The notes beneath the pieces were generated by a model. It saw only the letters and a list, made by a program, of their open reading frames with translations, was not told the DNA's origin and did no database searches. Shown in pieces: positions 1,987 to 53,184 of a DNA stretch of 54,925 bases; position 1 is the stretch's first letter, and the number at the start of each line of letters is the position of its first letter. Source of the DNA: a virus. Its lineage: Duplodnaviria > Caudoviricetes. Location: positions 1 through 54,925 of the IMG/VR virus record IMGVR_UViG_3300020021_000017; one strand, written 5' to 3'. Made by a program: the position numbers and the translations under genes.

Positions 1987-2293
1987 AACCTTACGTATTA
2001 TCGAACAAGGTGATGTTGTCCTAATCAAAAGAAATAGGGCTGTTGCAGGCATTATGACCAAAAATAATGTTGTCCAAGAAGGCGAGCATACTGGACACGC
2101 GCACCGTATTACTTCTGGCAATGCGACTGTATTTAATCTTGATGGTCAATTGTCTATTAAAGTTCTCAGTGGCGGAGCTACAATAACACACGAAGAACAC
2201 CTCCCAGTTACTATTGAAGAAGGGGAATACGAAGTTCGAATTGTTCGTCAAAAAGATCCTTTCACCAAATTGGTTAACAAAGTAATAGATTAA
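1976..2293 (+). CDS. His-rich beta protein commonly found next to DUF6745 genes
   Basis: QGDV...GEHTGHAH...HEEH...YEVR-Q motifs. Confidence 0.7.
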   Translation: MKTKTLRIIEQGDVVLIKRNRAVAGIMTKNNVVQEGEHTGHAHRITSGNATVFNLDGQLSIKVLSGGATITHEEHLPVTIEEGEYEVRIVRQKDPFTKLVNKVID

Positions 2294-2335
2294 ATGTTAA
2301 GACATATTGCATATCTTATGTGAAAAGATGCTTGT

Positions 2336-2563
2336 GTGCGCAATAATTTAGACAACGGCACAAATAAAGAAAAGTTGCGTAAAATGATGCGGGCCAAATC
2401 CAATACGATAGCCTCTATTATTCGAAGGGCATGCAGTTTGGGTACTGCTATAAGCCTCAGAATACGTGGTGAAATATGGGACAAAGTACGAACTGAAGTC
2501 GCTAGTAATAGAATAAAACATATGTTAACCGATCAAATTAATGAGGATATAAGTGCGCAATAA
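2336..2563 (+). CDS. Tandem-duplicated small protein, copy 1
   Basis: Close paralogue of 2553..2780. Confidence 0.65.
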   Translation: MRNNLDNGTNKEKLRKMMRAKSNTIASIIRRACSLGTAISLRIRGEIWDKVRTEVASNRIKHMLTDQINEDISAQ

Positions 2564-2780
2564 TTTAGACAATGGTACAAATAAAGAAAAGTTGTGTAAA
2601 ATGATGCAGGCCAAATCCAATAAGATAGCCTCTCTTATTTGGAATGCATACAGTTTGCATGCTGCTATAAGCCCTAGAATACGTAGTGAAATATGTGACA
2701 AAGTACTAATTAAAGTCGGTAGTACTAGAATAAAACATATGTTAACCGATCAAATTAATGAGGATATAAATGCGCAATAA
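2553..2780 (+). CDS. Tandem-duplicated small protein, copy 2
   Basis: Close paralogue of 2336..2563. Confidence 0.65.
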   Translation: MRNNLDNGTNKEKLCKMMQAKSNKIASLIWNAYSLHAAISPRIRSEICDKVLIKVGSTRIKHMLTDQINEDINAQ

Positions 2781-2994
2781 TATCTTAATATTAAATTTAG
2801 TTTCGGTATTATTACTACAAAGTTTCAGTTTATTCTACGTTTCCCAAGTTCGGTCAGATCTCTTTGTGCGCACAGTTGCTTACAACTCAGCAATAGATTC
2901 ATTCGAGACCTGTATGCGCAATGAGCGCAAAGTCAAATACAAACTCAAGAAGTTAATTCAAGAAAATACCTTACCAAGTAACAATAAATGGTAG
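2770..2994 (+). CDS. Membrane-anchored hypothetical protein
   Basis: N-terminal hydrophobic helix; shares the MRNN start with the repeat units. Confidence 0.55.
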   Translation: MRNNILILNLVSVLLLQSFSLFYVSQVRSDLFVRTVAYNSAIDSFETCMRNERKVKYKLKKLIQENTLPSNNKW

Positions 2995-3033
2995 TATTAT
3001 ATTAATACAGAGAGAACAAATTAAGGAATTTAT

Positions 3034-3228
3034 ATGAATTTGAAAGATAAAGATTGGTATAGTTTAACTATTTTTTTGACTGGGGGATGGGGAGGAGGCA
3101 ATAACATCTCTTGTTCTAACCAAGTCTGGGATAATATTGGGAATAAAATGGACGATACCGAGGGCGTTACTTTACGTATTAAAGGAGCTATACGTGATCT
3201 CGATAATTTGCGATTTTTGCAAATGTGA
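3034..3228 (+). CDS. Small hypothetical protein
   Basis: AAGGA RBS; QVWDNI motif. Confidence 0.5.
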   Translation: MNLKDKDWYSLTIFLTGGWGGGNNISCSNQVWDNIGNKMDDTEGVTLRIKGAIRDLDNLRFLQM

Positions 3229-3471
3229 AACTTATCCTCTTGTAACTAAAGTATTTACTTCTAACGTTGGAGTAATTCTTTGTATTCATTGTTTATTACG
3301 AGCCAACAATATACTACGGAATGATGAATCAAGACCAAGGATTCGCAATTTAAAAGCGGTAGAGCGCAAAGCTGCAAAGTGTTTGTATTTAGAAGCGCAC
3401 TTGGAGCATGAGAGGAAAGTTAATGAAAATTAAAGATTGGTACAATTACTCGGTGTTGTGCCTTGATCATC

Positions 3472-5388
3472 CTATCCCGGTATACCGGGAACGTTCGGCA
3501 ACATTTGCGATGTCGGAGATTGCTCAGGTTGAGCTTGTGGAACGCCTGGTTGAGACTGCTGCGCTGGTATGGCCTGCGCCTGAAGGGCAGTAACATCTTG
3601 TATGTACTGACGCAACATATCTAAACTTGTTTCTTCGGCATTATCACGTTTAGCTCTGGCATAGTACTGAATACCAAATTGCAATGCTTGTGCTAAATCA
3701 TCGTAAGCCTCAGGAGGTGTATAAATACCTTCTTCAATGATCTTGTCTAGGCTTTCTTCAATATAATCAAGAGGAGCATTGGAAATATCTTCGTAGAAGT
3801 CTAGATCTGGAAAGTGTAACAATTGTTTACCAACTTGAGGAGAAATCATTCCAGCTTGCATTAACTTCTGTACTTCATCAAGCCGTCCTGCAGGCTCTTT
3901 AGGCAAACTCGATTCTGGGAAACATTGAATGATGAAATCATCTTTAGCTAAGTTAAACTCAGGAAAATCAATCTTTTCAACAGCATTCTTACCCGGACAA
4001 ACAGTGGAATAAGAGCCCTCTCTTTCAAAGATTTCTTGAGCTTTATCAATGATTTGATAAGCTAGGTCAATAAACATTTTCTCATAATTCTGCGCAGTTA
4101 TTGCAAATCTATCAGATGAAATGTTATCATAAGCTTTGATTGCTTCGCCTGAATCCAACCCTGCCGGCTTTTGACTAGAAGCTTGCATCTCAGATACACC
4201 TGATTGTTTATAGGCATATTGCACCAAACGATCACGTTCTTGGTATATCTCGGCAGGAACGCAGGGCGCAACTTCGTACTCTGGCTTTGTGCCTTGATAC
4301 TTTACAATAGCGCCGATCTGATTATTGATGTGAGCAGAGACAACTTTACTGCCCTCTTCCACGAACACCCTAGGAACACCAACAAGATTGATAGACTGCT
4401 GAATAACATAACAAAGTTTATTAATCTCATTCTGAATCCCCATTAACTGTTCGGCCAAACCTTGTGCCCAAAAGCCCAAAGTCCTTGGAGCATAATTAAA
4501 GAATATGAATGGGAAGGTTTTCTTGGTATATTCTTCTTTAAGCATTATCCCACTATTAATAGAGATAACATGTAGTCCATCTGTGGCGTCTGATCCCGAA
4601 GGAAGATGCCAAGATTCTACTACCATTACTTGATCAGATATTGAGCGATGAGAATCCCCACTTTGATCAAATGATCCGCCTTCTGCTGATTGTATAAGGG
4701 CTTTTTTAGAAGGGAACATTGCAGTTAATTGAGAACGATCCATTAACTTAAGTTGATGTAGTTGCCTTGGATTACCGTAAAGAGATTCAATTTCATCAAC
4801 ATAGATCTCGGTATTTAATGTGCGTTCAATGCAAACTTTATTGTCTACTTCGTAAATCTTTACAACACCGGTACCTAGAATGAAGCTATCTATACAAACT
4901 TGTTGCAATATTTCATTAGCCTTTAATCGATACAATTCTCCATCAGAGAACTTATTAAGATCTTTAGACAACTTACGTTTCTTGTAATCCCCACCTGATG
5001 TTAAGAATACAGGGCGGGGTTTAGATTGGGCGATTTTAGCTTTAAGAGTATCACAGCATGATTGGACCACATTGAGAGTTACTCGATCTGCATTATTCTT
5101 ATATTGAGCATTCATCTTGGTGAGGTTCACTCCAAGCCAAGAATATAGAGGCATGTTACCATAAAGACGGGCATAAAGAGCGGCTTGGTGCTGACGATAC
5201 AATTGATTGGTCTTAAGATAACCAACAACACCAAAGATAGTTCCAACCATTTCTTTAGCATCTAATTCCCACCACTTACCTTCAACAGCATAGTTGCCAT
5301 CTTTAATATCAAAGCCTTTGGAAGCTTTTTTCTTACTATTCTTGTTGTTAAGTGAGGCAATGGGATCATGTTTGGTAACTTTTGCCAT
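3472..5388 (-). CDS. Portal protein (P22/T7-like podoviral type)
   Basis: 638 aa, downstream of TerL; VVESW, PF...Y..R..GFW.QG..E.L...Q..IN and SG.AI motifs; Q/P-rich tail. Confidence 0.88.
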   Translation of the reverse strand: MAKVTKHDPIASLNNKNSKKKASKGFDIKDGNYAVEGKWWELDAKEMVGTIFGVVGYLKTNQLYRQHQAALYARLYGNMPLYSWLGVNLTKMNAQYKNNADRVTLNVVQSCCDTLKAKIAQSKPRPVFLTSGGDYKKRKLSKDLNKFSDGELYRLKANEILQQVCIDSFILGTGVVKIYEVDNKVCIERTLNTEIYVDEIESLYGNPRQLHQLKLMDRSQLTAMFPSKKALIQSAEGGSFDQSGDSHRSISDQVMVVESWHLPSGSDATDGLHVISINSGIMLKEEYTKKTFPFIFFNYAPRTLGFWAQGLAEQLMGIQNEINKLCYVIQQSINLVGVPRVFVEEGSKVVSAHINNQIGAIVKYQGTKPEYEVAPCVPAEIYQERDRLVQYAYKQSGVSEMQASSQKPAGLDSGEAIKAYDNISSDRFAITAQNYEKMFIDLAYQIIDKAQEIFEREGSYSTVCPGKNAVEKIDFPEFNLAKDDFIIQCFPESSLPKEPAGRLDEVQKLMQAGMISPQVGKQLLHFPDLDFYEDISNAPLDYIEESLDKIIEEGIYTPPEAYDDLAQALQFGIQYYARAKRDNAEETSLDMLRQYIQDVTALQAQAIPAQQSQPGVPQAQPEQSPTSQMLPNVPGIPG

Positions 5389-16200: not shown

Positions 16201-16533
16201 ATGAATGCCCTGGACCTAACTAAATTATTCGCGTGTACTTGGAAAGAGCGGTACGGAAAGCCCTATACAATAAATTTTGGTCGCGATTCGTCGATGTTTA
16301 AAACATTGTTGACAGACTTTACAGACCTAGATATTCAAGATATGATCAAGTTCTATTTATTCGAATTACAGAGCACTTTTGCTATTGAAGGTGGGCATAC
16401 AACTGCAATATTTAAATATTGTATACCACAAATAATTGCCGAAATGCAAAGATATAAGAAAATCGAAGAAGCAGCAAAGAACGTTGATAAAACAGATTTT
16501 CAGCGTTTGCAAGAAGCTAGAAAGAAGCTATGA
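16201..16533 (+). CDS. Putative replication initiator / helicase-loader-like protein
   Basis: Helical protein translationally coupled (ATGA) to the helicase. Confidence 0.5.
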   Translation: MNALDLTKLFACTWKERYGKPYTINFGRDSSMFKTLLTDFTDLDIQDMIKFYLFELQSTFAIEGGHTTAIFKYCIPQIIAEMQRYKKIEEAAKNVDKTDFQRLQEARKKL

Positions 16534-17363
16534 AATCTTTAGAAGAAGCCTGTATAAGGACTAATTGGGATTCTTTTGTATCTTATTTAGATCGCAGGGT
16601 GTCGGGCATTCAGACGGGTATTACAGCCCTAGATTCATATTTACTTGGTCTGGGCGGTGTAACTGTGATCCAAGGAGATACTGGAACAAATAAATCCACC
16701 CTTATGTTGCAAATTGCTCTTCATCAATTAATGCAAGGAAATCCAGCGCTTATTATAGATCGTGAAAACGGTCAAGGTAGACTTCGCAGTCGTCTAACTT
16801 GCCAACTTAACGGCATTTCTGAAACAGACTTGCTTGTAGGAACTAGAGAGCAAAGATTATTTTGGGTTAAGCCAGTTACAAGACTACCTTTTTATATTTA
16901 CACTGAGAGCGTTTCTGATTTTGTAATTCTAGAAACCCGCATAAAAGAAATGGCAGACCTTTACCCAGACAAACCCCTGCTCCTAATCATAGATTCTCTA
17001 CAAGCTCTTGTCCCAGTTAACGAGGACCAAAGAGTTAGCCTCGAGAAATGGCTTTATTGGGCCGATGGGATGAAGGTACAATATGACGGTAGGTTGACTA
17101 TCCTAGCAACTTCAGAGGTTCGTAGAGCCTCTTATGAGGTTAAGGAGGCAATAGGACGGGCTAAAGGAACTAACGCGGTGGAATACAAAGCAGAAGTACT
17201 TTTGAACTTAAAAGAGGTTGCTGACACAGGTGAGATTAAAGTTGAAGTTGCAAAGAATCGTGATAATATTAAAGGTGCGACAATACTTTTACGCAAGGTT
17301 TTTGCAGATCCAAGTAATAATAGAAGTTTTACTTTTTGCTTAGAAGGAGCGGATGAATTATGA
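16530..17363 (+). CDS. DnaB-like (SF4) helicase, ATPase domain only
   Basis: IQTG...LD, variant Walker A GDTGTNKST, IIDSLQ, KNR. Confidence 0.85.
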   Translation: MKSLEEACIRTNWDSFVSYLDRRVSGIQTGITALDSYLLGLGGVTVIQGDTGTNKSTLMLQIALHQLMQGNPALIIDRENGQGRLRSRLTCQLNGISETDLLVGTREQRLFWVKPVTRLPFYIYTESVSDFVILETRIKEMADLYPDKPLLLIIDSLQALVPVNEDQRVSLEKWLYWADGMKVQYDGRLTILATSEVRRASYEVKEAIGRAKGTNAVEYKAEVLLNLKEVADTGEIKVEVAKNRDNIKGATILLRKVFADPSNNRSFTFCLEGADEL

Positions 17364-18172
17364 TTTGTAGTCTTTGTAACATGGAAGCAATTGTAAATCA
17401 AGCTGAAGGGAAAGAATTCTTTTACTGCCGAACTTGTAAGATTGAGCCAACAGAAAAGAGAGATATAAACTATCCCATCTTACCTCCAGGTTCTATACAT
17501 TATAATGCAAATACTTTCCCCGGTTCCGTTAATCCCTCTTTCGGACCATTGATCCCCGCTTCCCGAGCATTCTTTGATAATGTTTCTAAAATCCAATCTT
17601 CGCCGCATCAGTTAGGTTCCGCTCTTAGAATTCCGTTCACGATAACAACACAAACGGGATTGCTCCCATCTTCGCCGCATCACTTGCTTTCTTTATCGAC
17701 ACCAATAGTTTTGTGGTGGCTTATTCCAGCCGATCTAAATCCCTTCTCAGTTTACTTAAATAAATGGCTACCCGGTTCCTTACAACTTAGTACGCTACCT
17801 GATATATTTTATGGTATTGATCGCAATCTTGATCGAATACAATTGGCTGGAAATTGGTATGACGGGACAGGCAAAACTATAGAAGAAGGTATAATAAATT
17901 TATCTTATGATATTATGCAAAGAGGAGGAAATGTAGACACAGTATTCATGCATTTAACAGATTTTACTAATCTTTGTAAACATTTAGGGAATTTCTCTCC
18001 CATTTCATATCATACAATAATCTATAGCCACTCCAAAATTAATGTATATCCTGATTCAGATTGTCCAAAAGGTTTTGTTTATCTAGTTCAAATGAATACT
18101 TGGGAATACAGTCTTAATTTTAATGCACTTTACTGCACTAATCTTGCATTCAATGGAGTATTGAAACTATGA
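17360..18172 (+). CDS. Zn-ribbon fused to an internally deleted major capsid protein paralogue
   Basis: N-terminal CxxC...CxxC; four collinear blocks align by eye to the MCP at 45997..47292. Confidence 0.8.
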   Translation: MICSLCNMEAIVNQAEGKEFFYCRTCKIEPTEKRDINYPILPPGSIHYNANTFPGSVNPSFGPLIPASRAFFDNVSKIQSSPHQLGSALRIPFTITTQTGLLPSSPHHLLSLSTPIVLWWLIPADLNPFSVYLNKWLPGSLQLSTLPDIFYGIDRNLDRIQLAGNWYDGTGKTIEEGIINLSYDIMQRGGNVDTVFMHLTDFTNLCKHLGNFSPISYHTIIYSHSKINVYPDSDCPKGFVYLVQMNTWEYSLNFNALYCTNLAFNGVLKL

Positions 18173-18363
18173 AGAAGCCAATTATTCGTTGTGAACGCTG
18201 TCATCATGAAGGAAGAGTAGAAAAATTACATTGTTTCGTTTGTGCTGGTTGCAAGAGAGTGGTAGAGTATAAGAATACTGACAAGAAACTTTTTGTGGAA
18301 ATTGATTTAGGACTGTGCAATCCGTGTCATGAAAGATGTCCTCATAGACCAGAAGGAATGTAA
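18169..18363 (+). CDS. Small Zn-finger protein
   Basis: Several CxxC motifs. Confidence 0.6.
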   Translation: MKKPIIRCERCHHEGRVEKLHCFVCAGCKRVVEYKNTDKKLFVEIDLGLCNPCHERCPHRPEGM

Positions 18364-20432
18364 TGAGACCAAAAAATCCTAAATTTATTTGTGTAGATTG
18401 TGAAACAACAGGATTAGACTGGACAAAAGATACCTTACATGGCTTTGCTTACGCTTATGAAGAAGGTGAAGCAATTTATGTTAATGTTTCAGATATACCT
18501 AATTATGTAAAAGAGGATTTGGAAAATTCCGCTATTTCAGTTATTGGTCATAATCTGCATGCGTTTGATGCAAAGTTTCTATTTGCCATAGGGATTAAGA
18601 TACAAGGCAAAATGATTGAAAATATGGGTATTTGGCAATTATTGGATGACACTACTCCTTTAGGTTTGAAATTCTTGTCTGAAAAGCATATTGGTCTTGA
18701 ATCATTGGAACGTAAAAGGCTTCTGGATGACACTATTAAAAAAGCAGGAGTTTCTAATATTGCTGGGCTATGTGCCAAAGATTTACTTGATGCTTCTCAT
18801 CCATATCTAAAAGTAATTGGCGATTATTGTGAAGAAGATTGTAATAATACTTTACACCTGGCACTTCTAGGCATGGAAAAACTTAAAGAATTAGATAAGA
18901 AACTTAAAGAAAAATATAGGGTTACTAAAACTCCTCTTGATTACTTCCGAGAAGAATTCACTCCTCTTGAGAGTGTTCTGTTTAAAATTGAGACTGAGGG
19001 GTTTCGAGTTAATTTGGCTGTCATTGAGAAGTTGAGGGCAAGTGCCGAGATCAAACGGGATGAGTTGACTGCGCGCCTTAATAAGGGCTTTAAAGAGCAA
19101 ATTGCAATTATTGAAGATAAGCTGTACCAGTCAGCCCTGCTTAAACTAGTGATGCCTGCTGCAAAAGCTAAACGTATAAAAGGAGAAGGTAAATTAGCTT
19201 TTAGTTGGGAGAATGCTAATCACGTAGCAATCCTATTCTTCGAGCATACTAATTTCCCAGAGGAATTCATCCGTAGGACCGCTAGAGGTAGTTATGCTAC
19301 TGATAAGACTTATATTAACGGGCTAATGCAGTCATTACCCAAAGGGCACATTCTCCTAAAAGCAATTCCTATCTATGCAAAATATAAGTTAAATCAAAAG
19401 GTACTCACTACTTATACAGGAGATTCTGAAAAGGGTATTTATTCGAAAATCAGAAAAGGTGAGGACGGTAATCATTACATTTATCCTACTTTTCGGCAGA
19501 CAACTACTACTGGAAGATTGGCGTGCAAATCTCCAAACATGCAGAATATTCCACGAAACTCTCCCATTAAAGAATTATTCATACCTACTCAAGAGGGTAA
19601 TGTGTTTGATCATTTCGATTATAGCCAGATAGAATTAAGGATTGCGGGGCATTTGGCTAATGACAAAGATATCATTGCTGCGTATATTAATGGTGATGAT
19701 GTACATAAACAAACAGCAGCCACACTTTTTGAAATACCTATTACGGAAGTCACAGATATTCAAAGACAAGTTGGTAAAACATCTAATTTTTTAACGATTT
19801 ATAAAGGAGGTGCTTATAGATTGCAGGAAAGTCTCAGACAGCCAAATGGCTCATATCCGGGGCTCGAGTTTAGTAAAGAAGAGTGCCAAGAGTTTATTGA
19901 TAAATTCTTTGAACGCTATCCTGATCTTACTAAGTACCTCGCAAATGTACTCGTATTTGTTAGGAAAAACAGGTTTGTAATTAGCGAAGTGGGACGTATT
20001 CGAAGGTTAAGTGATATTGCTTTTGGTGATGAAGGCAACCTTAATTACAAAACTAAACGGTTTGGTGGTACACAACAACAAAGACAATTAATTATACAAG
20101 ACTTCAAAACAAAGAGTATACCAAATCCTTCTGAAGATGATATTTTCTGGGCCGCGCACAAGCGCTATAATCATGCAGTTAAGCAAGCATTTAACTTCCC
20201 AGATCAATCCTTATCTGCTAGTATAATTAAGCGCGCAATGATTAAGTTACATGCTGATGGTATTTCAATTCGTAATCAAGTGCATGACTCATTAGATATT
20301 GAGAGAGAAGAGAAGTTTACCAGTAAAACAGATTATGTACGGCATGTAATGGAAACTATCTATCCTTGCAGGCTTCCAATTAAAGTAGATTTTAAGACAC
20401 TTAGGAGTTTCAGTGAAGAAGATAAAGCCTAA
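18363..20432 (+). CDS. polA: DNA polymerase family A with 3'-5' exonuclease
   Basis: Exo motifs DCETTG, HN..FD, YCEED; TTTGRL..PNMQNIP; motif A DYSQIELR; motif B RQVGKTSNF...Y; motif C VHDS. Confidence 0.95.
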   Translation: MRPKNPKFICVDCETTGLDWTKDTLHGFAYAYEEGEAIYVNVSDIPNYVKEDLENSAISVIGHNLHAFDAKFLFAIGIKIQGKMIENMGIWQLLDDTTPLGLKFLSEKHIGLESLERKRLLDDTIKKAGVSNIAGLCAKDLLDASHPYLKVIGDYCEEDCNNTLHLALLGMEKLKELDKKLKEKYRVTKTPLDYFREEFTPLESVLFKIETEGFRVNLAVIEKLRASAEIKRDELTARLNKGFKEQIAIIEDKLYQSALLKLVMPAAKAKRIKGEGKLAFSWENANHVAILFFEHTNFPEEFIRRTARGSYATDKTYINGLMQSLPKGHILLKAIPIYAKYKLNQKVLTTYTGDSEKGIYSKIRKGEDGNHYIYPTFRQTTTTGRLACKSPNMQNIPRNSPIKELFIPTQEGNVFDHFDYSQIELRIAGHLANDKDIIAAYINGDDVHKQTAATLFEIPITEVTDIQRQVGKTSNFLTIYKGGAYRLQESLRQPNGSYPGLEFSKEECQEFIDKFFERYPDLTKYLANVLVFVRKNRFVISEVGRIRRLSDIAFGDEGNLNYKTKRFGGTQQQRQLIIQDFKTKSIPNPSEDDIFWAAHKRYNHAVKQAFNFPDQSLSASIIKRAMIKLHADGISIRNQVHDSLDIEREEKFTSKTDYVRHVMETIYPCRLPIKVDFKTLRSFSEEDKA

Positions 20433-20754
20433 AAAGAAGAGAGTTTCGAAGTATCCTTGGTACTACAAGTATCTATTTGCGGCTGCCCGTAAAACCTTTA
20501 GGTGGTCTCCAGCCAAGAGAAATGCCGTGAAACGTGCATTTGGTAAGTGTGAACTTTGTGAGCAATACGCCGATAAACTAGTTGTAGATCACATCCGTCC
20601 TGTAGTAGATCCTGAAACGGGCTTCACAACTTGGGATTCTTATTACACAAGATTATTCGTTCCTGAGAGCGAAGTGCAGGCTATCTGCAGTCCGTGTCAT
20701 AAACTGAAAACTAAAACAGAAGCCAAGATACGTGCTGGGGTTCGTAATGCTTGA
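20413..20754 (+). CDS. HNH endonuclease
   Basis: CELC...VDHI...ICSPCHKLKT. Confidence 0.8.
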   Translation: MKKIKPKKKRVSKYPWYYKYLFAAARKTFRWSPAKRNAVKRAFGKCELCEQYADKLVVDHIRPVVDPETGFTTWDSYYTRLFVPESEVQAICSPCHKLKTKTEAKIRAGVRNA

Positions 20755-22238: not shown

Positions 22239-22346
22239 TATCTTTATACTAACGTAATATAAGGTCATTTGTCAAGTAATAATAAGCATTTAATTTAACT
22301 TGCAAATTGCAACTTCTTGTGTAATTATGGAAAAAGGAGGTGTTCT

Positions 22347-22886
22347 TTGAGCGTCATTACGTCAAATCGAAAAATAGTGTTTTCTGGAAGCATTAATGAA
22401 GAATCAACAGCCGAACTGATAGCCGCCCTGCTTTCTATGAATTGCTACACAGATGAAGAAGTAACACTAATCATCAATAGTGGTGGTGGGCATTTAGATG
22501 ATGGTATAGGTATATATGATTGTATCCGCTCCCTTCCATATAAAACTCATGGTATAGTGTTTGGGCAAGCTAGTTCTGCAGCAGTATTGATATTGCAAGC
22601 ATGTACTATGAGAACAATAGGTGAGAATTCTATTATTATGGTACATGCAGGTTCCGTAGGTATCGATGCTAGACATCCTGAGGAAACATTTAAACAAGTA
22701 AAGACTTCCGTAGATATGGTAAGAAGAACAACGAAAATCCTTGCTTTAGCTTGTGGTATTGATGTAAAATTAATGAGTAGAAGAATGAGATTCGGATCTT
22801 CTTATGTTGGACAAAAGGCTGTTGATGCGGGGTTTGTAGACAATGTACTTAAAATAGGAGATTTATACCGTGGAATTAAAGTTTAA
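22347..22886 (+). CDS. ClpP-like serine protease subunit
   Basis: INSGGG, GQASSAA (Ser), IMVH (His), A..GFVD; AGGAGG RBS with TTG start. Confidence 0.85.
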   Translation: MSVITSNRKIVFSGSINEESTAELIAALLSMNCYTDEEVTLIINSGGGHLDDGIGIYDCIRSLPYKTHGIVFGQASSAAVLILQACTMRTIGENSIIMVHAGSVGIDARHPEETFKQVKTSVDMVRRTTKILALACGIDVKLMSRRMRFGSSYVGQKAVDAGFVDNVLKIGDLYRGIKV

Positions 22887-23929: not shown

Positions 23930-24361
23930 TTAAGCTATCTCAAATAAAGCTTTTTCAGCTAATCTTCGTTTCAATAATCCAGCATTTGCGATACCATTAA
24001 TATGAGACCACTTGACGAACTCTTGGGCAGCAGAGCCAAAAGCTCCGTTGTTTACGTCAGCCAGTAAAGTACTTCGTCCTAAGTTCCCAATGCCAATGTT
24101 AAAAGCTAGGGAAACCAAAGCCGCAAACTGATTATCATTTACATTTGACTTGATAGCGTCATCGACTTGTTGCTCTGCATTTGTTAGGTCCTGAACTAGG
24201 AAAGCTTCTGCCTGATCTTGCGTAATAGAATCCCCATCACATACGCTGTGAGTATGACCATACCCAATAGTCCAAACACCGCCCTGGTCTTGATACGCGT
24301 CTAATCTACACCCTTCAAAGTGCTCAATGAGAGCCATTCCCGCTGAATTAATCTGTCTCAT
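23930..24361 (-). CDS. Endolysin, GH24 lysozyme
   Basis: FEG.RL.AYQD..GVWTIGYGHT, FAALVS.AFNIG, GL..RR..E..LF. Confidence 0.95.
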   Translation of the reverse strand: MRQINSAGMALIEHFEGCRLDAYQDQGGVWTIGYGHTHSVCDGDSITQDQAEAFLVQDLTNAEQQVDDAIKSNVNDNQFAALVSLAFNIGIGNLGRSTLLADVNNGAFGSAAQEFVKWSHINGIANAGLLKRRLAEKALFEIA

Positions 24362-24945
24362 TATTTTTCAACCAAGCAATAAAGTAGCATTGCAGTAACC
24401 ATTCCACCTAAATGAGCAGCAAATGCTGTCCCAGTGGGCATTACAATAGCTGTACAAGTTGCAATGTATTGTGACATAAACAAAAACGCCATGAATAGAA
24501 TACTAAGTACTCTTACTATCTTATTCTCTTTGCAAGAAAGCAGGGCGTAAAATACACAGCCGCTTATAGCCACAGAACTACCGAGTAATTCAGTCCACCC
24601 AAACAGGCTGGGAGTAATCATGAAGAATAGAGAGCCACATACCCCCGTAATAAACCATATTGCAAGGAACTTTAGGGAACCTATTTTACGCTCTAAATAG
24701 ATGCATAAGGGACCGCCAAATACGAAATTTCCAGTTAAGTGTATGAAGCCAGAATGAGCAAACATATGAGTGATCATATGTAGTATACTAAGGACACCAA
24801 TACCATCTTCGTATTTAACTGCTAATTGGTCCATTAAGCCAGGATAAAATAAAGATGTTACGTATGCAATAGCACTAAGAAGGAACATTGAGAAGAACGC
24901 TATCGGGGAGTGTTTTGATGAAGGTCGTGGTTTTTTGCTTAACAT
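24361..24945 (-). CDS. Rhomboid-family intramembrane serine protease
   Basis: HMFAH...HL.GN, LE..IG, G-S-S (catalytic Ser), AHLGG (catalytic His); about 6 TM helices. Confidence 0.85.
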   Translation of the reverse strand: MLSKKPRPSSKHSPIAFFSMFLLSAIAYVTSLFYPGLMDQLAVKYEDGIGVLSILHMITHMFAHSGFIHLTGNFVFGGPLCIYLERKIGSLKFLAIWFITGVCGSLFFMITPSLFGWTELLGSSVAISGCVFYALLSCKENKIVRVLSILFMAFLFMSQYIATCTAIVMPTGTAFAAHLGGMVTAMLLYCLVEK

Positions 24946-45996: not shown

Positions 45997-47292
45997 CTAG
46001 GCTGACAACCGGATTACGCAGTTCCAACCAGGCGCACTAGTGATCAAATTGGCATAATAACCAATTCGGATCTCTAATGCATCCGCAGTACCAACGCGAA
46101 GACCTTCAAGGCCTTCCATGCCGTACGTGAGGATATGAGGCGCTTTTCCAAGCGACCGCAGCTTCCACACGTCTAGCTCCAGGAGGTAGCACATCTGCTG
46201 TGGGCAGTTACGGTCAGGAATGACCGTGATCGGGCCGTACGGAGCATGAACAGTGATACCCTTAAACGCGATATCTCCCATGCCACCTTCACCGTCATCG
46301 CCGCGCACATCAACATATTGCACCTTACTTCCCAATTCTTTTTCAAGAGCTGAGTAGGATGCGAAGTTCATGAAGCACATTTCAGGCGCTCCGCCTTCTC
46401 GTGCAACAAGTGAACTTCCGTCAATGAGGGCTTCTTCGATTGATTCGCCTGATCCGTCAAAACGGACGCCTGCGAGTCTGGTCACATCAACTGATCTGTC
46501 CACTCCCCAGAAACTGTCGCCAGTAACAGGAGCAATGAACGGCAACCACGCGGCTAAACCAGCAACCTTCAAGAACGAAGTCGTTCCAGAAGCGCCAGCT
46601 GCACCGATGTCACCCTGCGCCACTAGGAAGCTCAAGGCCGCCCATTGTGCAGAAGGAGTTGCACTTGAGGATAACAGAATCAACTGACCCGTAGATCGAT
46701 TAACATTGGTGACTTGAGCAGTCGTAGCAGAAGGAACGCCGCCATCAGTAGCAGTTGCAACTAACGTCATTCCAACTTCGAACTGTACGATGTCATTCGT
46801 GTCAAGCAGAACGATCGTGATGACCGTACCGACCAACGCGTATGTACCAATTTGTCCGCGTGTACCCGTTCCACTGCGGAACAAGTCACCGGCTAAGTCA
46901 TTCGAGATCGAACGAAATGAGGCATCAACCTGGAGCTTGCCTTCGTCCAAAAACGCACCCGCATTCTGTCCCGTTGCGGCTTCGAGAAGCTCGTTCGAGA
47001 TAGATGCGATCACGTAGTTGCTTACTCGGAATACAAAGAAACTTTGCATCTGAGTAGGCGTTTGATTAAGCTGAGCATTCGCAAACGTAGCGGATCTTCC
47101 TTGCGGAGTTCCGTAGATCAACGGCACGGGAATATACTTTCCCGCGAACCCTTGAGGACTTTCGTCCTTAGGGATAATGGCCAACATCGGATTCTTTTTA
47201 TAAACTAGATCTTTCATGTACTCGGTAGGATTGTCGTACAATTCCTTGAGTGCAGCGATCTGGTTCGTTGCATTATTAAAAACTGGAGGCAT
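45997..47292 (-). CDS. Major capsid protein (HK97 fold inferred)
   Basis: 431 aa after the scaffold; ALKELY, F..G.G, PD..CP...Y.L...W; GC-richer codons; downstream hairpin. Confidence 0.88.
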   Translation of the reverse strand: MPPVFNNATNQIAALKELYDNPTEYMKDLVYKKNPMLAIIPKDESPQGFAGKYIPVPLIYGTPQGRSATFANAQLNQTPTQMQSFFVFRVSNYVIASISNELLEAATGQNAGAFLDEGKLQVDASFRSISNDLAGDLFRSGTGTRGQIGTYALVGTVITIVLLDTNDIVQFEVGMTLVATATDGGVPSATTAQVTNVNRSTGQLILLSSSATPSAQWAALSFLVAQGDIGAAGASGTTSFLKVAGLAAWLPFIAPVTGDSFWGVDRSVDVTRLAGVRFDGSGESIEEALIDGSSLVAREGGAPEMCFMNFASYSALEKELGSKVQYVDVRGDDGEGGMGDIAFKGITVHAPYGPITVIPDRNCPQQMCYLLELDVWKLRSLGKAPHILTYGMEGLEGLRVGTADALEIRIGYYANLITSAPGWNCVIRLSA

Positions 47293-47358
47293 AGTACACC
47301 TTAATTATCAATTAGTTACCATATTGCAACTGCATGTTGCACACACGTGCAAAATGAG

Positions 47359-48399
47359 TTAGCCTCGTCCGTACAACTTAGCAAGGACTTTGGCTTTACG
47401 TTCCGCTGGTGATAGATTTTCTTTGACAGGACGTGCGGTGCCGTCTGTTGCAATTTGATGCGTTAGGGTAGTAGGTACCCATTTTGGCTTCGTTATAGGT
47501 GCAGCTTCATTACCAGCAACAGGAGGTATTCCAGTACCTTGAGTTCCGGTATTCGTAGCCAGGGGGGCATTGATCCCGAGCTTTGCCTGTAGTTTAGCTA
47601 CTTTGAATAAATCGAGTGCTTGTTCTTCGAAATAAGATTCGACGGACTTGCAGGCTTCCTCGACATTCATTATGCGGCCAGTGTTATTGTAATGCTGGGA
47701 CATTAACTCGAACACTACTCCGCTTGCTTCATTCTTTGAGACCAAGGCGAAATCATCTGGGCGCGCCTTGACAAAATCTTCTATTTCTAACTTAACCTGG
47801 TCGGTGGCTTGTTGATATTGTTGTTGGGCCTGAGCATTCGCTTGTTCAGCGGCTTGAGCCTGCTGAGCTTTAAATTCTGAATCACGTCGGCTGTTCTCGT
47901 CACGTAACTGCTGTAACTCACGTTGCATCCTACTCTCTACTAACTCTGGAGTGGGCTTAGAATCGTTTAGGACGAATTGAGTAAGCTGTTCGTACGTCAT
48001 CCCCAGGTCTTTCATGGCCTCAATGGGGTTTTGCAATGCACGGGCTTTTAAATCGTTTTGGTAAGTGCTCTTTACAACATCAGCGGGTTGCAACGTTGCA
48101 AGTTTAGCCTCGAGCTCTGCAATCTTAGTGGCTTGAGCTTTGGACGCAGTAGATGCTTGCATTGCACGTTGCGAACTGGCTCTCTCTTTTTCAACCAGCG
48201 CATTGAAGCGCTTATTCATTTCGATGCGTTCTGGGGAGGGTGTCGGGGCTTTGACTTCAGGAACAACAGGGACAACGGGGCTGGGGGCTACTTGCGCTAT
48301 AGATGCCTTTGCTTGAAGAGTTTGTTGCTGAGGGGTGTTAATAGTAGTTGCAGCTACAGAGGGCTTTACATTGAAACCAGAGCCGATGGGGGCAGGCAT
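47359..48399 (-). CDS. Capsid scaffolding protein
   Basis: Coiled coil with P-rich ends and C-terminal ERKAKVLAKL helix; directly upstream of MCP. Confidence 0.75.
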   Translation of the reverse strand: MPAPIGSGFNVKPSVAATTINTPQQQTLQAKASIAQVAPSPVVPVVPEVKAPTPSPERIEMNKRFNALVEKERASSQRAMQASTASKAQATKIAELEAKLATLQPADVVKSTYQNDLKARALQNPIEAMKDLGMTYEQLTQFVLNDSKPTPELVESRMQRELQQLRDENSRRDSEFKAQQAQAAEQANAQAQQQYQQATDQVKLEIEDFVKARPDDFALVSKNEASGVVFELMSQHYNNTGRIMNVEEACKSVESYFEEQALDLFKVAKLQAKLGINAPLATNTGTQGTGIPPVAGNEAAPITKPKWVPTTLTHQIATDGTARPVKENLSPAERKAKVLAKLYGRG

Positions 48400-52401: not shown

Positions 52402-53184
52402 ATGAAATATAAATTTACTGGATTAACGAAAATTGCTGCAGGTATTACACTGCGACAAATTATTCGTAAAGCAGATAAAAAGATCGGCGGTTGGATTGAG
52501 AAAGAAACTAATCTAGCTCAAAATGGCGATGCTTGGGTATATGGCGATGCTCGGGTATATGGCGATGCTCGGGTGTACGGTGATGCTCAGGTGTACGGCA
52601 ATGCTCAGGTGTATGGCAATGCTCGGGTATATGGCACTGCTTGGATATTCGGCAATGCTCAGGTGTATAGCAATGCTCAGGTGTACGTCAATGCTCAGGT
52701 GTATGGCAATGCTCGGGTATATGGCACTGCTTGGATATTCGGCGATGCTTGGGTATATGGCGATGCTCGGGTGTACGGTGATGCTCGGGTATACAGCAAT
52801 GCTCAGGTATACGGCGCTGCTTGGGTATATGGCAATACTTGGGTATACGGCGATGTTCGGGTGTACGGTGATGCTCAGGTGTATGGCAATGCTCAGGTGT
52901 ATGGCAATGCTCGGGTATATGGCACTGCTTGGATATTCGGCAATGCTCAGGTGTACGGCAATGCTCAGGTGCTTCAATCAATAGATATTATAAATATTAT
53001 AATCCGCCCTTATTCAATAACTATCACTCCGCAAAACATCGTTATTGGGTGTCAAATGAGATCTAGGTTTGGAAAAGAACAATGGAAAGTAACCGATAAA
53101 GGCGTAACTGCGAATTTAATTAAACAATATAAGCCTTTTCTTTCTTTACTTAAAAAACAAGTTCCTCGTAGTAAAGGAAAGTAA
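52402..53184 (+). CDS. Hexapeptide-repeat (left-handed beta-helix) protein, copy 1, 25 repeats
   Basis: GGWIEKETNL followed by G(D/N)A(R/Q/W)VY 18-bp repeats at 52525-52974. Confidence 0.9.
   Translation: MKYKFTGLTKIAAGITLRQIIRKADKKIGGWIEKETNLAQNGDAWVYGDARVYGDARVYGDAQVYGNAQVYGNARVYGTAWIFGNAQVYSNAQVYVNAQVYGNARVYGTAWIFGDAWVYGDARVYGDARVYSNAQVYGAAWVYGNTWVYGDVRVYGDAQVYGNAQVYGNARVYGTAWIFGNAQVYGNAQVLQSIDIINIIIRPYSITITPQNIVIGCQMRSRFGKEQWKVTDKGVTANLIKQYKPFLSLLKKQVPRSKGK

Follow-up and report, generated by a model that had tools for sequence, protein, structure and literature searches.

A zinc-ribbon-tagged, cut-down paralogue of the major capsid protein encoded beside the replication genes of an uncultured phage

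Genomic position of the mini-MCP gene

The window, that is, the whole stretch of DNA analysed here, is a 54,925-bp virus record from IMG/VR. Besides the gene of a full-length major capsid protein (MCP), it was found to contain a short open reading frame (ORF) for a cut-down relative of the same protein. This gene, referred to as mini-MCP (P0001, 270 aa; 17360–18172, stop codon included, + strand), was recognised by the ORF listing, by homology to the MCP and by a predicted HK97 fold. The full-length paralogue (P0002, 431 aa; 45997–47292, − strand) was identified by NCBIfam NF033394 capsid_maj_Podo with 88.2 bits (cut-off 80), by its structural model and by fold matches; its score against Pfam PF17236 SU10_MCP was 22 bits, just below the cut-off of 24.1. 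The MCP gene is preceded by a coiled-coil, scaffold-like gene (47359–48399), and the MCP and scaffold genes together occupy 45997–48399 on the − strand. Mini-MCP is located outside this head module, on the + strand and at a distance of 27.8 kb from the MCP gene.

The gene upstream of mini-MCP encodes a DnaB-like helicase of 277 aa (16530–17363, + strand; Pfam AAA_25 and DnaB_C, phrog_19). Its stop codon overlaps the ATG of mini-MCP in the form ATGA, and a GGAG is present 11–14 nt upstream of the mini-MCP start. At the other end, the mini-MCP stop codon is overlapped by the ATG of a Cys-rich ORF of 64 aa (18169–18363, + strand), which was noted from the ORF listing and its sequence and had no match to any family in Pfam, PHROG or PADLOC. 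This ORF abuts the gene of a family A DNA polymerase with a 3'-5' exonuclease domain (PolA; 18363–20432, + strand; Pfam DNA_pol_A, E 4.8e-62). Because the start and stop of mini-MCP overlap the helicase gene and the small zinc ORF before PolA, the protein is presumably produced together with the replication proteins rather than with those of the capsid module. An earlier, sequence-only reading of this DNA had described the ORF as coupled between helicase and PolA, on the opposite strand and ~28 kb from the MCP gene; the helicase overlap, the position, the strand and the distance agree with our measurements, but the intervening 64-aa ORF had been missed. A scan for promoters and terminators was not better than that of shuffled sequence.

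Homology to the full-length MCP

Mini-MCP is genuinely related to the MCP family of its own phage, as a miniaturised paralogue. By BLASTP it was aligned with the MCP of the same genome at E 4e-19, with 30% identity over 137 columns (mini 133–249 corresponding to MCP 246–377). Two alignments were built, one of 22 short relatives (A2) and one of 40 full-length MCPs (A5), and their profile–profile comparison by hhalign gave a probability of 100 and an E value of 4.8e-41 for mini 131–270 and MCP 244–430, taking in the last strand as well as a deletion of ~35 residues preceding it. The hidden Markov model (HMM) of the MCP family matched the core in all 23 mini sequences, with domain E values from 2.4e-10 to 7.9e-36. 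As a separate HMM domain the C-terminal strand was weak (independent E values of 0.012–1.5), and it was in the same register in 17 of the 23. The motifs shared by minis and MCPs are W-[LI]-P, G-[VI]-D-R-x-x-D-x-x-R-L-x-G, G-G, P-D-x-x-C-P, Y-x-x-Q-M-D-T-W and a C-terminal C-x-x-P-G-x-N. Mini-MCP itself matched no family in Pfam (E ≤ 1), none in NCBIfam (E ≤ 0.1), and none in PHROG or PADLOC.

Collinearity with the MCP in four blocks had been proposed in the sequence-only reading, and the homology was borne out by these comparisons. The second and third blocks were recovered by both BLASTP and the MCP-family HMM; the fourth, which is the last strand, is weak alone and lies within the hhalign alignment, with the deletion before it as described. 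The first block was not significant by sequence (HMM score −2.0, independent E 100; no BLASTP match), but its register was the same and the structural models agree with it, since mini strand 88–98 corresponds there to the first long MCP strand, 53–61.

Predicted fold of mini-MCP

The AlphaFold2 model of mini-MCP obtained with A2 had a predicted local distance difference test score (pLDDT) of 82.7 and a predicted template modelling score (pTM) of 0.72. Codons 1–30 (17360–17449, + strand) form a putative four-Cys zinc ribbon (C3, C6, C23 and C26; strands 11–15 and 18–23; pLDDT 81–90), which is acidic, with an isoelectric point (pI) of 4.9, and corresponds to the N-terminal CxxC..CxxC module that had been read from the sequence. 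It is followed by a Pro-rich, apparently disordered linker of ~35 aa and low confidence (codons 31–66; 17450–17557, + strand), with pLDDT of 44–49 for residues 31–60 and below 50 at 34–49 and 51–53; the linker varies in length and cannot be aligned across the mini family. Codons 67–270 (17558–18169, + strand) were assigned by VIA-align and hhalign to a cut-down HK97 fold, with an E-loop-like hairpin (88–98/113–123) that corresponds to the MCP E-loop plus first P strand, A-domain helices 174–187 and 199–208, P-domain strands and the C-terminal strand.

In Foldseek searches of the PDB, the best matches to the mini-MCP model were the phage capsids Pa223, SU10 and HK97. By VIA-align, the model was superposed on the capsid of cyanophage A-1(L) (7f38_I) with Z 14.9, 189 aligned residues and a root-mean-square deviation (rmsd) of 5.2, and on HK97 prohead II (8cfa_D) with Z 12.7, 155 aligned residues and an rmsd of 3.1. 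Residues 67–270 of the model correspond to HK97 gp5 130–381 (155–170 aligned residues, Z 11–12.7). The search of the ESM Atlas with mini-MCP returned only capsid look-alikes with scores <0.8 and template modelling scores <0.5. The BFVD search returned MCPs, plus two short viral proteins, UPI001E7EF71E (160 aa) and H9YS96 (129 aa), which aligned in part to the mini-MCP model (rmsd 4.2–4.5, 97–114 columns); further cut-down HK97-like viral proteins may exist.

The MCP model (pLDDT 88.2, pTM 0.87) contained N-arm helices 8–39, E-loop strands 53–61 and 81–99, a spine helix at 100–136 (modelled as helices 100–108 and 111–136), an insertion domain at 144–225 and then the A/P elements. It matched solved capsids with Z of 20.6 (cyanophage A-1(L)) and about 17, with 235–284 aligned residues. 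Gone from mini-MCP, which is ~160 residues shorter, are the N-arm, MCP 100–243 with the spine helix and insertion domain, and the P-domain hairpin (about MCP 381–404). The N-arm helices have no counterpart, as mini 1–66 consists of the ribbon and the low-confidence linker. Likewise, only 10 residues separate strand 113–123 from the segment aligned with MCP 244, and the longest mini helix has at most 14 residues. The A-domain plus P-domain core is retained. According to these models, mini-MCP is predicted to be about two thirds of an HK97 core without the lattice-knitting elements. Two earlier statements, that the long central part of the MCP is missing and that the remnant could not build a shell, hold for the predicted models, in which the parts needed for a shell are absent; the description of the remnant as roughly a stand-alone A-domain has to be given up, since the E-loop-like hairpin and P-domain strands are kept too. 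A complex prediction of MCP with mini 60–270, performed without controls, gave scores of 0.10 and 0.28, below the mark of 0.32, which speak neither in favour of binding nor against it.

By homology, mini-MCP can be assigned to the HK97-fold MCP superfamily, nearest to the SU10/'Podo' type. With the SU10 and 'capsid_maj_Podo' MCPs (PF17236, NF033394), the phage's own MCP included, it shares homology, the A-domain helices and strands, and the motifs given above. It differs from them in its zinc ribbon, in its accessory status and in being encoded outside the capsid module, and it has neither the N-arm and spine helix nor the insertion domain and the long hairpin of the P-domain.

A family of short capsid-like proteins

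An exhaustive HMMER search of 1.84 billion representatives returned 341 proteins at E ≤ 1e-3, the best 150 of which were inspected. Most of these 150 were MCPs of ~400 aa that matched only mini 133–250, and about 21 proteins of 180–290 aa matched mini-MCP from end to end. The 21 short matches were taken as minis, and ~20 other short proteins (e.g. P0022, P0024 and P0046) were set aside as MCP fragments by their match range. The family was defined by a length of ~200–290 aa, an MCP-like C-terminal domain ending in a C-x-x-P-G-x-N...L strand and a place apart from the MCPs in the tree, all of which apply to the window protein. It has at least 22 diverged members, and the mean column identity among the 22 aligned was 25%. 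Residues W136, G152, R155, D158, L162, G164, G189, Y241, T247, W248, C259, P262 and N265 were near-invariant in these 22. Word-indexed protein searches found only P0005, P0039 and P0066, and with the ribbon alone (residues 1–40) only P0005. Several further members are carried on long contigs: P0039 on 19 contigs of up to 50.6 kb, P0008 on 45 kb, P0155 on 34.7 kb, P0006 on 25 kb and P0010 on 24.7 kb.

An unrooted tree of 22 minis and 45 MCPs was made by quick search on 118 shared columns. One branch, with a Shimodaira–Hasegawa-like approximate likelihood ratio test (SH-aLRT) support of 99, parted all minis from all MCPs, and therefore the mini family most probably has a single, old origin. The window protein grouped with P0005 and the orthologue from a second phage genome, G001, with SH-aLRT 94. 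Gene conversion from the phage's own MCP and independent origins were considered and rejected, as the minis form one group and the window mini is not nearest to its own MCP.

The four-Cys ribbon motif was present in 15 of the 23 family sequences. One of the others has a Cys/His variant, three from one subclade have a single first-knuckle Cys, and four are without the motif, one of these being a fragment of a ribbon-bearing protein. Since the ribbon was lost or degraded in some members, the capsid-like domain was regarded as the constant part of the family. A 212-aa member (P0062) has no N-terminal ribbon and carries a Cys-rich extension beyond the last capsid-like strand. In related contigs, the same ribbon motif (M-I-C-x-K-C ... 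G-K-[DE]-F-[YW]-Y-C-R-T-C-K-x-E) was found at the N-terminus of other, unrelated ORFs of 85–203 aa, several of them with strongly acidic tails at the C-terminus and none with a Pfam family above cut-off (L004 12707–13318; L005 12582–13148; L007 202–543; L008 573–851; L009 759–1034; L010 9995–10255; L013 288–545). This suggests that the ribbon is a reusable handle, and its sharing is suggestive of a modular accessory arsenal. The ribbon-headed ORFs of L004 and L005 were found within a small-gene block inserted after the MCP gene.

Distribution among related phages

G001 is an IMG/VR phage genome of 51,355 bp, rated 100% complete and collinear with the window. The gene order around its mini is the same, namely helicase, mini (229 aa), an 84-aa Cys-rich ORF and PolA, and the mini begins 2 nt downstream of the stop codon of the helicase gene. 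The HNH endonuclease gene that overlaps the end of the PolA gene in the window (20413–20754) has a shorter homologue following PolA in G001. Although genes for a DnaB-like helicase, for PolA and for a separate exonuclease are present in both genomes, neither gave a Toprim_2 or Prim-Pol match at E ≤ 1.

Thirteen further IMG/VR records have an MCP 57–65% identical to that of the window; among them are a genome of 37 kb that bears terminal repeats and three that are 82–84% complete. A mini was found in none of the thirteen at E ≤ 1e-3. The head and tail genes of these records are common with the window and the replication module is different: the helicase homologue is absent, and PolA is 19–22% identical in the two that have one. 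A scan with the C-terminal motif gave 80 loci with 74 MCP-type ORFs and only two minis (L054 and L055). The latter are surrounded by small ORFs, a GNAT acetyltransferase and a tyrosine recombinase, followed by terminase and portal genes; there was no replication gene in 7.5 kb of L054. These results demonstrated that mini-MCP is a rare accessory gene of one lineage, tied neither to the capsid type nor strictly to replication genes.

No match was obtained at E ≤ 1e-3 when P0001, P0002, P0007 and P0039 were compared by tblastn with 50,697 deposited phage genomes, from which the whole phage lineage thus appears to be absent. Scans of IMG/VR with P0001, the A3 alignment and P0011 found no relative, and those with the helicase alignment and with PolA found G001 only. 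A metagenome scan returned MCPs and zinc-ribbon-only ORFs but no mini context, and two scans of species genomes gave neither a prophage copy nor a host.

Rate and mode of evolution

The window and G001 were compared for 19 named genes, of which mini-MCP had the lowest identity. The protein identities were 82% for MCP, 81% for portal, 74% for helicase, 72% for terminase and 67% for PolA, and only 29% for mini-MCP. The path in the tree between the two minis was 2.45 substitutions per column, compared with 0.19 between the MCPs of the same phages. Mini-MCP thus diverges about 13-fold faster than the MCP.

The phage occurs in sequencing runs from soil and freshwater. Differences among near-identical strains were obtained from contigs of four metagenome runs covering 16530–20432, which were few and short (depth 8.6 for X5 and 2–4 for X3). 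Strain X5 differed from the window at 15 of 257 nt in the 3' part of mini-MCP (17911–18167), with only one difference each in 195 nt of the following ORF and in 353 nt of PolA. The 12 listed differences of the X5 mini comprise 10 nonsynonymous and 2 synonymous changes. When unique strain changes were pooled, the nonsynonymous to synonymous counts were 11:2 for mini-MCP versus 1:6 for PolA (Fisher p 0.004), and the crude ratio of nonsynonymous to synonymous rates (dN/dS) of mini-MCP was 1.25 over 85 codons. The nonsynonymous changes in the X5 contig cluster in a strain-variable patch at codons 195–252 (17942–18115, + strand). A diversity-generating retroelement was rejected as the source of this patch, because the 12 listed changes are not adenine-specific. 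The 64-aa Cys-rich ORF after mini-MCP may also differ among strains: in one low-depth contig of run X3, 65 nt at its 3' end (window 18296–18362) are replaced by 13 other letters.

Nine of the 11 changed residues fall in aligned columns, eight of them at positions with less than 30% family conservation and one, G238, at 50%; the other two, residues 251 and 252, are outside. Over the shared domain, column conservation in minis was correlated with that in MCPs (Spearman 0.70). Fourteen columns are conserved at ≥70% in both groups and have an identical residue; 24 columns conserved in MCPs are relaxed in minis, and conservation confined to minis was seen in a single column. None of the 14 core columns was touched by the strain differences that fall in aligned columns. 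As there are 14 shared conserved columns and only one specific to minis, the protein keeps 'looking like MCP' and gains no new site. From these alignments, the capsid-like scaffold of mini-MCP appears to be conserved and its surface free to vary, and no new active site has arisen.

The frame was open in all 23 mini sequences, and no disrupted copies were seen. In the sequence-only reading, absence or frequent disruption in relatives together with dN/dS near 1 had been named as the mark of a decaying duplicate. Absence from most relatives was indeed found, as was a dN/dS near 1 in one 85-codon comparison, but not disruption (0/23), and the conservation of core motifs across more than 2 substitutions per site counts against such decay. 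Mini-MCP is a non-shell-forming offshoot of the phage's own capsid family that is kept by selection.

Possible functions of mini-MCP

Our leading reading, held tentatively and at somewhat less than an even chance, is that mini-MCP is a capsid mimic at a conflict interface, which would engage a factor that recognises MCP, most probably an immune sensor, and leave it untriggered. It was ranked first because the evolutionary profile fits a conflict interface and capsid-sensing immunity is real and widespread. CapRel senses a capsid protein and Lit senses the T4 Gol peptide. Capsid-sensing immunity is also established for Avs7 and Dsr1, which are described in a recent preprint as sensors of MCPs (bioRxiv 10.64898/2026.01.04.697583). 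In the proposed mechanism, mini-MCP would be made before the real MCP and would display the conserved MCP core to whatever recognises MCP, most probably a sensor of host immunity that is set off by capsid protein. It would occupy the sensor without activation, because parts needed for assembly or activation would be missing. The zinc ribbon would be a protein-binding or dimerising handle, and the variable patch would track changing sensors. The median pI of the minis, 6.2, is close to neutrality, and the ribbon is acidic, which indicated protein rather than DNA contacts.

The evidence favours a conflict role over that of a housekeeping chaperone, because the gene is accessory, evolves ~13-fold faster than the MCP and shows an excess of nonsynonymous changes; we infer that such a profile is typical of proteins at a host–phage or phage–phage interface. 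The accessory spread and the rapid, nonsynonymous-rich divergence expected of a counter-defence protein are both seen in mini-MCP. Extended to the whole family, the idea is possible at a lower level of confidence: the minis may be a capsid-exapted family of zinc-ribbon-tagged, spine-less HK97 folds, made with early or replication genes and serving as decoy or blocker for capsid-sensing immunity of the CapRel, Avs7, Dsr1 or Lit type. If true, this would be the first counter-defence that mimics the very structural protein used by the host as alarm signal; a phage-encoded dominant-negative capsid subunit against rival phages would be a close second to such a decoy family.

Several observations weigh against the capsid mimic. 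A decoy would be expected to look like the epitope of the MCP from the same phage, yet mini-MCP shares just 30% identity with that protein and is no more similar to it than to foreign MCPs. In 8 of 23 sequences the zinc ribbon is degraded or absent; one of these is a fragment, and some may be truncated ORF calls. The dN/dS near 1 in 85 codons, based on 13 unique changes at contig depths of 2–8.6, also fits relaxed constraint. Only three genomic contexts were readable (the window, G001 and L054/L055), and the PADLOC, PHROG, Pfam and NCBIfam families give the protein no functional hint, although a PADLOC match is not expected for a counter-defence gene.

The proposed logic of occupying a host sensor is like that of Ocr, a DNA mimic, and DSAD1, which counters the tail-tube sensor DSR2 (PMC11087589; bioRxiv 10.1101/2025.06.06.658234). 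Like them, mini-MCP is accessory, probably early, fast-evolving and small; unlike them, it is derived from the capsid fold, an origin that is not known for any counter-defence protein. The words 'capsid' and 'HK97' have 0 occurrences in the main text of a catalogue of 268 anti-defence proteins (bioRxiv 10.1101/2025.06.06.658234). A full-text literature search found no description of a truncated, ribbon-tagged MCP derivative, although supplementary files could contain one.

The main rival, rather unlikely but still substantial, is interference with, or timing of, capsid assembly. Mini-MCP would bind full-length MCP via the retained A-domain and P-sheet surfaces, and thereby cap or poison the capsomers of co-infecting relatives or delay its own MCP until DNA has been replicated; the groove left by the absent spine helix might contribute. 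It is in favour of such interference that the protein retains exactly the most conserved MCP motifs and most of the fold while it is without the lattice-forming N-arm and spine helix, like a dominant-negative subunit. Fast evolution fits phage–phage conflict as well, and the tyrosine recombinase on the contig of one member suggests that this may be a temperate phage. Capsid-derived assembly inhibitors are a known principle, as with satellite Ccm, Ty1 p22 and Fv1. Ty1 p22, a truncated Gag, mouse Fv1 and sheep enJS56A1 are capsid-derived inhibitors in eukaryotic elements, in which a truncated or diverged capsid protein acts against capsid assembly or function, as is proposed here for mini-MCP; their folds and hosts are unrelated, and the analogy is one of principle only. 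Two facts count against it, above all if the role is purely self-directed. A partner of its own MCP, which is 82% conserved between the two phages, should itself be conserved, yet mini-MCP is the fastest-changing gene. Furthermore, all 13 relatives with the same capsid module are without it, so that capsids of this type can be assembled in its absence.

It is improbable that mini-MCP is a minor virion or assembly protein whose gene merely lies apart from the structural module, such as a subunit for the vertex, for the vicinity of the portal or for cementing. In its favour, most of the HK97 fold is retained, and MCP paralogues at special capsid positions exist. The T4 gp24 vertex protein and the satellite Ccm-type MCP homologues are full HK97 folds that enter shells and are encoded in the structural module or in a satellite. 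Mini-MCP is like them a duplicated HK97-fold MCP whose role is apparently apart from that of the main shell protein, as we propose, but it is truncated, ribbon-tagged and located in the replication operon of a phage with a full capsid gene set. The missing N-arm and spine helix, the coupling to helicase and PolA on the other strand, 27.8 kb from the capsid genes, the absence from relatives with the same structural module and a 13-fold faster divergence than that of the MCP it must fit all argue against a place in the virion.

Still less probable is a replisome accessory, in which the zinc ribbon beside a DnaB-like helicase would perform a primase- or loader-like job, such as template recognition or recruitment of the host primase, with the capsid-like domain as scaffold. 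In two phages the gene is found between those of the helicase and PolA, the zinc-binding domain of T7 gp4 occupies the equivalent place, and neither the window nor G001, which is rated complete, matched Toprim_2 or Prim-Pol. A comparison with primases of the T7 gp4 type was negative, as mini-MCP had no Pfam match at E ≤ 1 and the two domains are absent from the whole window record. The L054 member, located amid small ORFs and GNAT, recombinase, terminase and portal genes, speaks against this role, as do the acidic ribbon and near-neutral protein, the lack of a catalytic or mini-specific conserved site in the shared domain and the loss of the first Cys knuckle in a subclade; such fast divergence would also be unusual for a replisome part.

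Least probable of all is a functionless, slowly decaying partial MCP duplicate: the crude dN/dS of 1.25, the 24 relaxed columns and the rarity of the gene among relatives would suit it, but 23 of 23 frames are open despite 2.45 substitutions per column between two orthologues, the 14 core columns are conserved and unhit, the helicase-adjacent position is kept in both phages (ATGA overlap in the window, 2-nt gap in G001), there is a single old origin with many diverged members, and the model is confident.

Capsid proteins are major alarm signals for bacterial immunity, and a phage countermeasure derived from the capsid fold was not described in the texts searched. The mini family is a concrete, testable candidate, with clear ancestry, a confident model and a variable patch that has been delimited, and the genome also encodes its full-length partner. 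Should the decoy idea prove wrong, the family still indicates that an HK97 fold without spine helix and N-arm can be maintained by selection outside the virion module, which bears on the recruitment of capsid folds for new roles. The family also gives a handle on an uncultured phage lineage.

Other features of the genomes

The MCP genes of several relatives were found to be interrupted (L020, which is G001, 2001–3929; L029 1907–3876; L030 2001–3901; L005 8222–10498). In G001, L029 and L030, the first ~53–61 MCP codons are about 0.5–0.7 kb apart from the remainder, and in L005, MCP codons ~16–102 and 113–431 are about 1.1 kb apart with a 155-aa ORF between them. These interruptions look like introns or other inserts; no intron family of Rfam was detected in them at gathering thresholds. 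In the window, the region of the MCP gene (46001–47000) has 52% G+C, compared with about 38–40% for the genome.

The window was estimated by CheckV to be 43% complete, yet it is gene-for-gene collinear with the 51.4-kb, circularly permuted G001, which is rated 100% complete; it is probably a near-complete genome. A ClpP-like protease gene is located on the replication-side strand and not in the head module, and the window also encodes a rhomboid-family protein, a YdcK beta-solenoid/bactofilin-like protein and a DUF6745 protein. The coordinates listed jointly for these four genes, in the same order, are 22317–22886, 24361–24945 (− strand), 52402–53184 and 925–1770.

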